Source: Escherichia phage Dewey. From it: a DNA stretch of 40,352 nt. The notes under the pieces are model-generated. The model saw only the letters and a program-made list of their open reading frames with translations, was not told the DNA's origin and did no database searches. Location of the stretch: the sequence record PQ850600.1, one strand, 5' to 3'. Every line of letters starts with the position of its first letter. Position 1 is the stretch's first letter. Both the position numbers and the translations under genes were made by a program. Below are positions 29,260 to 30,060 of this stretch, in pieces.

Positions 29260-30060
29260 ATGGCAAAAAAACCTACACCAGACCAGGTAAAAAAGATTCG
29301 TTCCGGCATTACCAAGAAAATACGGTTTGAGGTTTTCAAGCGCGATGGCTTCAAATGCCAGTACTGTGGGAGTTCTGCGCCAGACGTCATCCTTCATGTC
29401 GACCATATCAACCCAGTTAGCAAGGGTGGCGATAACGACATGATGAACCTTATTACTTCTTGCGATAGTTGTAATGGCGGGAAAAGCGACAAACTGCTCA
29501 GCGATAACTCAATAATGGAAAAGCAAAGGCAGCAACTCCAGGAACTTAATACCAAGCGAGAGCAACTGGAGATGATGATCAAGTGGCGAGATGGTCTTAA
29601 GAGCCTAAAAGACGATGTTGTTGATATTGTCGCTACCAAAATTGACGACTGCATTGCACCATTTACTGTTAATGACAATGGGCGAAAATCTATCAAGAGA
29701 TGGCTTCGAATATATAAGCTTGAAGAAATCCTCGATGCGATTGAGATTGCCGCAGACAAAAAACTCACCCAAGAAATAACCCATGAGCTTACTGGTGAAT
29801 TCTTTGAGTACATCCCTCGCATAGCAGCGACAAAAAGAAAACCGCCAAAAGAACAAAGGATTCTATACATCAGAGGAATCCTTAAAAACCGCATATATAT
29901 CAATCAAAACCATGTAATGAGTTATCTCAAGGCATGGCTTTCATACGACTTAGATCTCGATGAACTTACTGAGTTTGCGAAAACAGTACCTAACTGGACA
30001 ACGTTCAAGGAGTGGGTATCTGAACGCATTCGTGAAGCTCAGGAAGAACTCCCGTACTAA
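29260..30060 (+). CDS. HNH nuclease-domain protein with coiled-coil C-terminal domain
   Basis: 266 aa; N-terminal CQYCGSSAPDVILHVDHINPVSKGGDNDMMNLITSCDSCNGGK is an HNH Zn-finger nuclease motif; AT-rich; between cII and replication genes. Confidence 0.7.
   Translation: MAKKPTPDQVKKIRSGITKKIRFEVFKRDGFKCQYCGSSAPDVILHVDHINPVSKGGDNDMMNLITSCDSCNGGKSDKLLSDNSIMEKQRQQLQELNTKREQLEMMIKWRDGLKSLKDDVVDIVATKIDDCIAPFTVNDNGRKSIKRWLRIYKLEEILDAIEIAADKKLTQEITHELTGEFFEYIPRIAATKRKPPKEQRILYIRGILKNRIYINQNHVMSYLKAWLSYDLDLDELTEFAKTVPNWTTFKEWVSERIREAQEELPY

Follow-up and report, generated by a model that had tools for sequence, protein, structure and literature searches.

Escherichia phage Dewey (sequence record PQ850600.1; 40,352 nucleotides (nt) of one strand, referred to here as the window) carries, between cII and its replication genes, an open reading frame (ORF) for a protein of 266 amino acids (aa) in which an HNH nuclease domain is followed by a conserved helical tail. 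In phages, this HNH + tail gene almost always directly precedes a replication-initiator gene, often with overlapping stop and start codons, and the slot that it occupies behaves as an exchangeable, dispensable nuclease cassette. The ORF lies at 29260-30060 on the plus strand, exactly where an earlier examination of the letters alone (hereafter the sequence-only reading) had placed it, with an ATG start and a TAA stop at 30058-30060, and its product is a member of PHROG 16986. On its 5′ side, cII (28945-29238, plus strand; Pfam Phage_CII, E = 8e-46; PHROG 191) is separated from it by a 21-nt spacer (29239-29259, plus strand), which contains the sequence GGAG at 29250-29253, 6 nt 5′ of the ATG, and forms the left edge of the cassette; neither a promoter nor a plus-strand terminator is predicted within this spacer. 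The right edge is formed by the replication initiator (30072-30959, plus strand), which matches PHROGs 17247, 16167, 12556 and 1408 (‘replication initiation protein’) and is followed by a DnaC-like helicase loader (30944-31807, plus strand; PHROG 50, E = 3.5e-86; NCBIfam DnaC; Pfam IstB_IS21), and the position between cII and the replication genes given in the sequence-only reading is therefore correct.

The HNH stop and the start of the initiator are separated by 11 nt, with AGGTGG at 30061-30066 abutting the TAA. The start of the initiator is probably the ATG at 30072, because its homologues all open with MAR(S/A)RNIKPGFF; a mechanical ORF call begins at GTG 30063, and Escherichia phage Louie is annotated with the equivalent ATG in a coding sequence (CDS) of 295 codons. 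The gene order makes the HNH + tail gene the next one after cII in the early-right transcription unit. The AT-richness previously ascribed to the gene is real but mild (42.4% GC, against 48.0% for the window), and it is not peculiar to the gene, the neighbouring genes having 41.6-47.7% GC.

The HNH zinc-finger nuclease domain (29260-29508, plus strand; residues 1-83) contains the motif C33-x2-C36 ... D48-H49 ... N63 ... C68-x2-C71-N72, and is matched above the curated thresholds by Pfam HNH (PF01844; residues 33-77, E = 1e-13, 51.6 bits against a cut-off of 21.4) and HNH_5 (PF14279; E = 3.5e-12, 46.5 bits against a cut-off of 27.5). In an alignment of 148 unique relatives, H49, N63, C71 and N72 are present in all, C68 in 147 and D48 in 145, whereas the invariance of C33 and C36 arises partly by construction, both residues lying inside the peptide patterns that were used for fetching the loci. 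The complete N-terminal motif proposed earlier from the sequence thus stands, with its catalytic and zinc-binding residues kept, and the concern that its residues might turn out to vary on alignment was not borne out, their conservation being 98-100% in the 148 members. In comparisons with close relatives, each half of the protein gives a ratio of nonsynonymous to synonymous substitution rates (dN/dS) of 0.03-0.09. The sequence therefore indicates an intact zinc-finger HNH (His-Me finger) nuclease-type protein under strong purifying selection. Its HNH subtype is the zinc-finger type of McrA, IscB and Cas9, not that of I-HmuI/HNH_3. IscB is the best NCBIfam match (residues 20-114, E = 1.6e-16), and the matches in the PDB include IscB and Cas9; this likeness is confined to the HNH domain, since the score of 60.4 bits compares with an IscB cut-off of 175, and neither RuvC nor guide-RNA features are present. 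Phage zinc-finger HNH nucleases and nickases, such as those of Geobacter (Gme HNH, 4h9d) and GVE2 (5h0m) and HK97 gp74, have the ββα-metal core, the two CxxC pairs and the D-H...N...N residues in common with it. They are stand-alone domains of about 100-130 aa encoded beside terminase genes and cos sites (PMC3592412), whereas the window protein differs from the HK97 gp74 type in having a conserved helical tail of 180 aa and in being encoded at the cII-initiator site, not at terminase/cos.

The tail is predicted to comprise a single long α-helix (29509-29652, plus strand; residues 84-131), which bears an invariant R100/Q102/W109 motif, and a compact seven-helix C-terminal domain (29653-30057, plus strand; residues 132-266), in which Y203-x3-I207-x3-R211 and W246 are conserved. 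In the AlphaFold (AF2) model, the predicted local distance difference test score (pLDDT) is 87.9 for the full length and 93.8 for residues 84-266 alone, and the 48-residue helix at 84-131 is followed by a globular seven-helix domain at 139-263 with pLDDT >93. Contrary to the sequence-only reading, the tail in this model is not a long coiled coil; the heptad pattern of the helix is weak (8 of 14 a/d positions hydrophobic in the best register), and the tail is Lys/Glu-rich only to a mild degree (K+E 20%, against 14% in the HNH part). As had been noted, the last 180 aa match no Pfam family. Among the relatives, tail identity is 40-50%, with several invariant residues: Q102 is kept in 148 of 148 unique relatives and W109 in 147, and Y203, I207 and R211 are nearly invariant, position 211 being R in 128 members and K in 14, with W absent from its four most frequent residues. 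PDB sequence searches with phmmer and two profile searches gave matches to the HNH domain only and no relative of the tail; likewise, no relative was found when the tail model was compared with the PDB by Foldseek (best E = 2.3), and it scores no better against AAA lid domains than against designed helical bundles, or the reverse. In some loci, ORFs of 363-395 aa with N-terminal extensions are artefacts of ORF calling in high-GC DNA and do not represent fusions.

The window corresponds to a lambdoid prophage of E. coli. A CDS of phage Louie annotated as ‘HNH endonuclease’ is 99.9% identical to the HNH + tail gene, and unannotated DNA of an Stx1a-converting phage is 99.6% identical to it. Within E. 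coli, the gene occurs in 18 of 5,426 complete genomes. Three of the strains, 0H24, 0H25 and 0H26 (NZ_CP081778.1, NZ_CP081694.1 and NZ_CP081786.1), carry a 100% identical gene both on the chromosome and on separate records of 30-39 kilobases (kb) that belong to the same assemblies and are filed as plasmids; these may represent the prophage in excised or episomal form. The profile of PHROG 16986 (‘unknown function’) is matched from end to end (positions 1-248 of 248, by residues 11-259; E = 1.1e-151). Among 5.8 billion proteins searched, 1,586 matches were obtained, and nearly all of the best 120, from Pseudomonas, Providencia, Tolumonas, Candidatus Electronema and many metagenomes, cover at least 89% at about 50% identity. 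With a profile of the tail only, 1,476 clusters at 50% identity were obtained, 1,111 of them at E ≤ 1e-10. In the best 150 of these clusters the tail starts at about residue 74, directly behind a stretch of the size of an HNH domain, and for this reason HNH and tail are regarded as a fixed evolutionary unit; the exceptions among the 150 are truncated entries and forms of 400-600 aa with extra C-terminal sequence. The family is already annotated, only as ‘HNH endonuclease’ or as PHROG 16986, and the enzyme class is not new. Undescribed in the open-access text searched are the fixed HNH + tail family, the near-constant placement of its phage members ahead of a replication initiator, and this position as a nuclease slot common to T5orf172 proteins and in-frame HNH inserts.

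The genomic context in phages was examined in the 80 closest IMG/VR loci (39-100% identity), taken from at least 526 viral relatives. In all 73 assessable loci, an ORF on the plus strand is the next gene downstream, and the gap to it is typically -8, -4 or +2 to +10 nt. By iterated hidden Markov model (HMM) search, 59 of these 73 ORFs belong to the initiator family of the window, and 42 of the 61 unique downstream proteins match ‘replication initiation protein’ PHROGs (1408, 16167 and 2149). Ten of the 14 other downstream ORFs were scanned, nine of which match PHROGs of O-like, HTH_36, DnaD-like or DnaA-like organiser initiators and one of which gave no match; at least four types of initiator are found downstream of the HNH + tail gene. 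The association with the downstream initiator/DnaC pair contemplated in the sequence-only reading thus holds for the initiator; a DnaC-like gene is present in 19 of 78 loci only, and its co-occurrence as a rule was rejected. Similarly, cII precedes the HNH + tail gene in about 10 of the 78 loci. The same gene order is found in individual phages of distant hosts: in Pseudomonas phage JBD44, gp1 (HNH) is followed by gp2 (replication initiation protein) and gp3 (DnaB-like helicase); in Oenococcus phage Krappator27 and Vibrio phage 219E41.1, the HNH homologue is followed by a DnaD-like loader and by a winged-helix protein, respectively; and Komagataeibacter phage phiKX1 and Pseudomonas prophages also have the order HNH, then initiator.

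The occupants of the slot were surveyed in the reverse direction, in 79 assessable IMG/VR loci with close relatives of the window's initiator (45-99% identity). In 43 of these, a T5orf172/GIY-YIG protein of 220-255 aa is encoded upstream of the initiator, with gaps of 0, -1 or -4 nt; other small HNH proteins occupy the position in two loci and an ASCH-like protein in one. Seven further loci (L087:2597-3001, and also L088, L091, L102, L104, L132 and L137) have there an unrelated protein of 134-143 aa with no Pfam match, the gene of which overlaps the start of the initiator by 1-4 nt. Conversely, the T5orf172 cassette is absent from all 78 HNH + tail loci, and the two cassettes share no domain. 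In one E. coli chromosome, a prophage has the order cII, T5orf172, an initiator with 78% DNA identity, and a DnaC-like gene. When the window is compared with phages that carry another cassette, DNA homology stops at 29237-29262 and restarts at 30070-30072, and therefore the exchanged unit is exactly the HNH ORF. A nuclease domain can also reside within the initiator itself: in L137:2570-4014 and L143:2308-4023, an HNH domain lies in-frame between the N-terminal domain of the initiator and its iteron-coded linker, and L143 additionally has a T5orf172 gene directly upstream, so that its replication module encodes two nucleases. An architecture of this kind is implied by PHROG 5718, to which both the HNH + tail protein and the initiator of the window are matched.

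Iteron-like repeats, CTGATTCCCTTAACCTGATTC in about 2.5 copies at 30553-30605, lie inside the initiator gene, about 490 base pairs (bp) 3′ of the HNH stop. Their translation is PADSLNLIPDSLNLIPDSL, in which the peptide DSL(N)LIPDSL is shared with initiator homologues from distant hosts. By analogy with phage lambda, in which ori sits inside gene O, these repeats probably mark the phage origin. Just 5′ of the iterons, the initiator linker region contains a 47-nt direct repeat with 81% identity (30388-30434 and 30482-30528), each copy of which contains the same hairpin-forming 20-mer, GCACCATGCAAGTACAGTGC (hairpins at 30409-30428 and 30503-30522); this repeat with its hairpins may be part of the origin.

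We tentatively propose, with a probability of roughly 0.4, that the product of the gene is an accessory, exchangeable nuclease acting on DNA at the replication origin. This reading is favoured because of the in-frame fusions, the stop/start coupling and the association across non-homologous initiators, which together suggest a tie with replication initiation and not with one DNA sequence. In such a scheme, the HNH + tail protein would be made together with the initiator, and the conserved helix and the helical C-terminal domain would bring the HNH active site to the DNA of the origin region, through direct binding of DNA or via the initiator and the helicase-loading complex. The protein would then nick or cut at the origin region, the putative iteron origin lying about 490 bp downstream, and the resulting 3′ or recombinogenic end could help theta replication give way to the rolling-circle or recombination-dependent mode. 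The same cut on the DNA of a co-infecting relative would drive gene conversion carrying the cassette and the linked origin module. Both functions offered in the sequence-only reading, a nuclease against competing DNA and a replication-associated nicking enzyme, remain the leading candidates, and the genomic context is informative for each. The nearest characterised precedent is Odn (Gp88) of phage ICP1, an origin-directed nuclease that needs iterons for cutting and in which a RepA_N-like DNA-binding domain is fused to T5orf172, by which it attacks the origin of a satellite (PMC8263062). The T5orf172 nuclease type of Odn fills the present slot in sister phages, and the L137 and L143 relatives resemble Odn in joining a nuclease domain to the origin-binding domain of an initiator; unlike Odn, the window protein combines HNH with a tail that does not resemble its initiator. 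A further precedent is NixI, an HNH-type nickase shown to be capable of controlling the rolling-circle transition of a phage (bioRxiv 10.1101/2021.07.12.452122).

Several observations weigh against an origin-associated function. The adjacency in 73 of 73 loci covers only the 80 closest of the at least 526 viral relatives, and outside phage replication modules the association is looser. When bacteria were sampled at one genome per species, the 80 best loci (37-57% identity) were spread over more than 15 phyla (Proteobacteria, Planctomycetota, Acidobacteriota, Bacteroidota, Verrucomicrobiota, Cyanobacteria, Firmicutes, Actinomycetes, Patescibacteria and others). Twenty of these 80 encode long forms of 417-445 aa, extended at the C-terminus by some 160 aa of variable sequence; among the 19 assessable long forms, 18 have no recognisable initiator adjacent to them. 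Among the 53 assessable short forms, 26 adjoin an initiator by phmmer and two more by Pfam (DUF1376; HTH_36/DnaD_N), which leaves about 25 that do not. A Candidatus Electronema metagenome-assembled genome (MAG) encodes a 269-aa member with 48% full-length identity (L162:5001-5810) in the order rpsB-tsf-pyrH-[HNH+tail]-frr-uppS, with no phage genes near this pyrH-frr copy, and in Gastranaerophilales (L226:4004-5281, L234 and L245) a Dam-type methylase and a DpnII restriction enzyme are followed by a long form. The initiator family, moreover, works without the HNH + tail protein: the gene lies upstream of the initiator in 8 of the 79 relatives, and in several relatives, such as L129 and L150, the cII-like gene is followed immediately by the initiator. 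The family can thus do without the nuclease, since not all of its members have one upstream. The tail itself shows no similarity by hhalign to the downstream initiator family (E = 0.54) or to the T5orf172 cassette proteins (E = 0.084), and its DnaD-like signal, discussed below, fails in Foldseek and profile tests. It is a further difficulty that one conserved tail would have to recognise the origins of non-homologous initiators. Finally, a search of open-access text gave no biochemical or genetic work on any member, JBD44 gp1 included. The idea that the alternative cassettes have a targeting domain in common was rejected on the basis of the missing hhalign similarity between the tail and the T5orf172 proteins.

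A close rival explanation is that the gene is a purely selfish free-standing homing-type HNH endonuclease, which would cut a cassette-less or differently occupied cII-initiator junction or the nearby origin region and be copied in by repair, with no role in replication. Free-standing homing endonucleases (T4 Seg/Mob, I-HmuI-type) likewise lie between conserved genes, with alternative occupants and sharp breaks, and they likewise join an N-terminal nuclease to a putative C-terminal targeting domain. Here, presence, absence and alternative occupants are found at a slot with breaks exactly at the end of cII and at the initiator ATG; the alternative occupants belong to HNH and GIY-YIG/T5orf172, typical classes of homing endonucleases, two of them being held by L143; and the nuclease is dispensable for the initiator family. 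The T5orf172 occupant is, however, the majority state (43 of 79) and not sporadic, and the in-frame HNH fusions inside an essential initiator look functional rather than parasitic. The insertion of one copy between the core genes pyrH and frr, the rarity of the gene in E. coli (18 of 5,426 genomes) and the identity of 38-57% across more than 15 phyla also fit homing; this identity often exceeds that of the linked initiators (52% against about 35% in Pseudomonas relatives), which suggests independent horizontal movement. On the other hand, sequence-specific homing does not predict a constant place before non-homologous initiators, nor a stop and start tightly coupled to the initiator across distant hosts, both of which are atypical of homing genes. 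The DNA-binding domains of homing enzymes usually track variable targets, whereas the tail is conserved. Repair could be served by a RecT-like annealing protein, annotated upstream in phage Louie, a close relative of the window, and matched by the window at 24287-25082 with 95.6% DNA identity. The origin-nuclease and homing explanations are not exclusive: cleavage at an origin or close to it would promote recombination-dependent or rolling-circle replication and, at the same time, the conversion of rival modules.

Two further explanations set aside a nuclease role at the origin. The adjacency to the initiator might reflect only early expression, the protein being a conflict nuclease unrelated to replication that makes an early attack on host DNA, prophages, plasmids or satellites or acts in counter-defence. 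The HNH domain does resemble those of PtuB, ZorE, McrA and type II restriction enzymes at the domain level, long-form relatives adjoin a Dam methylase and a DpnII restriction enzyme, and NixI (bioRxiv 10.1101/2021.07.12.452122) and Odn (PMC8263062) are precedents. Nevertheless, this explanation is improbable: a gene in the repressed early-right operon, as assigned from gene order, cannot protect the lysogen, and a need for early expression leaves the initiator adjacency in 73 of 73 loci unexplained, early slots being numerous. The protein was likewise not accepted as part of a defence system, because the PADLOC matches are weak (best E = 9e-8) and restricted to the HNH domain, with no match at the level of a system. 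Still less credible is a DnaD-like replisome organiser or helicase-loading adaptor whose HNH finger would be mainly DNA- or zinc-binding and not a nuclease. The motif of DnaD is Y-x3-I-x3-W, which the Y-x3-I-x3-R of the tail recalls with R in place of W, and the likeness to DnaD/DDBH2 proteins (Pfam DnaB_2, PF07261; 2i5u, 2zc2; Bacillus subtilis DnaD 8ojj) and to SPP1 G39P lies in the replication-module context. A Pfam scan of 28 tails gave nothing significant, DnaB_2 touching two of them below the cut-off (best E = 0.031). No significant sequence or profile similarity to these proteins was detected (nothing in the PDB profile search), Foldseek gave no hit (best E = 2.3), and the window tail is about twice as large as theirs. 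The hhalign comparison with DnaD is negative (E = 0.65) but is a weak test, made with an alignment of only four sequences, because a deep DnaD alignment could not be built: the DnaB_2 query from a locus gave two homologues, and there is one such domain among the fetched loci. The DnaD-likeness of the tail is thus a lead and not a finding, and the retention of D48, H49, N63 and N72, the residues found in active HNH enzymes, argues against a structural finger.

To our knowledge, the switch of lambdoid phages from early theta to late rolling-circle replication is still not settled. A conserved nuclease slot 5′ of the initiator is a concrete candidate both for this switch and for the extreme mosaicism of lambdoid replication modules, in that the nuclease could nick at the origin for replication or drive exchange or exclusion of modules between co-infecting phages. 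It is conceivable, though rather unlikely, that HNH + tail, T5orf172 and the in-frame HNH insert are three forms of one unrecognised, widespread nuclease component that works with iteron-type initiators at temperate-phage origins. Such a component would initiate rolling-circle or recombination-dependent replication by a nick or break, or would destroy and convert rival origins, and many phage origins described as ‘theta-type’ would then be two-component systems of initiator plus nuclease. The family is large and crosses phyla, and it is represented in tractable phages (Louie of E. coli and JBD44 of Pseudomonas) as well as in a Shiga-toxin phage. Even if the protein were an ordinary homing endonuclease, its two-domain architecture and preferred site would add to the annotation of PHROG 16986.

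Elsewhere in the region, a strong terminator-like hairpin with a T-run lies on the minus strand at 29187-29214, antisense to the 3′ end of cII, a position that we take to be equivalent to that of the lambda oop RNA terminator. A corresponding oop-like promoter would lie within the 5′ end of the HNH gene; none is predicted there, the hairpin has no Rfam match, and a scan of 27000-32500 with Rfam gave no RNA family. In the nin region, an unrelated nuclease-like ORF of 169 aa (33685-34194) contains the I-HmuI/HNH_3-like motif NHKDGNKLNN...ENLEWVTRTEN, and its end is overlapped by a Cys/His-rich ORF of 92 aa (34184-34462). The counterparts of both of these ORFs in phage Louie are annotated as ‘HNH endonuclease’ and lie immediately before RusA.

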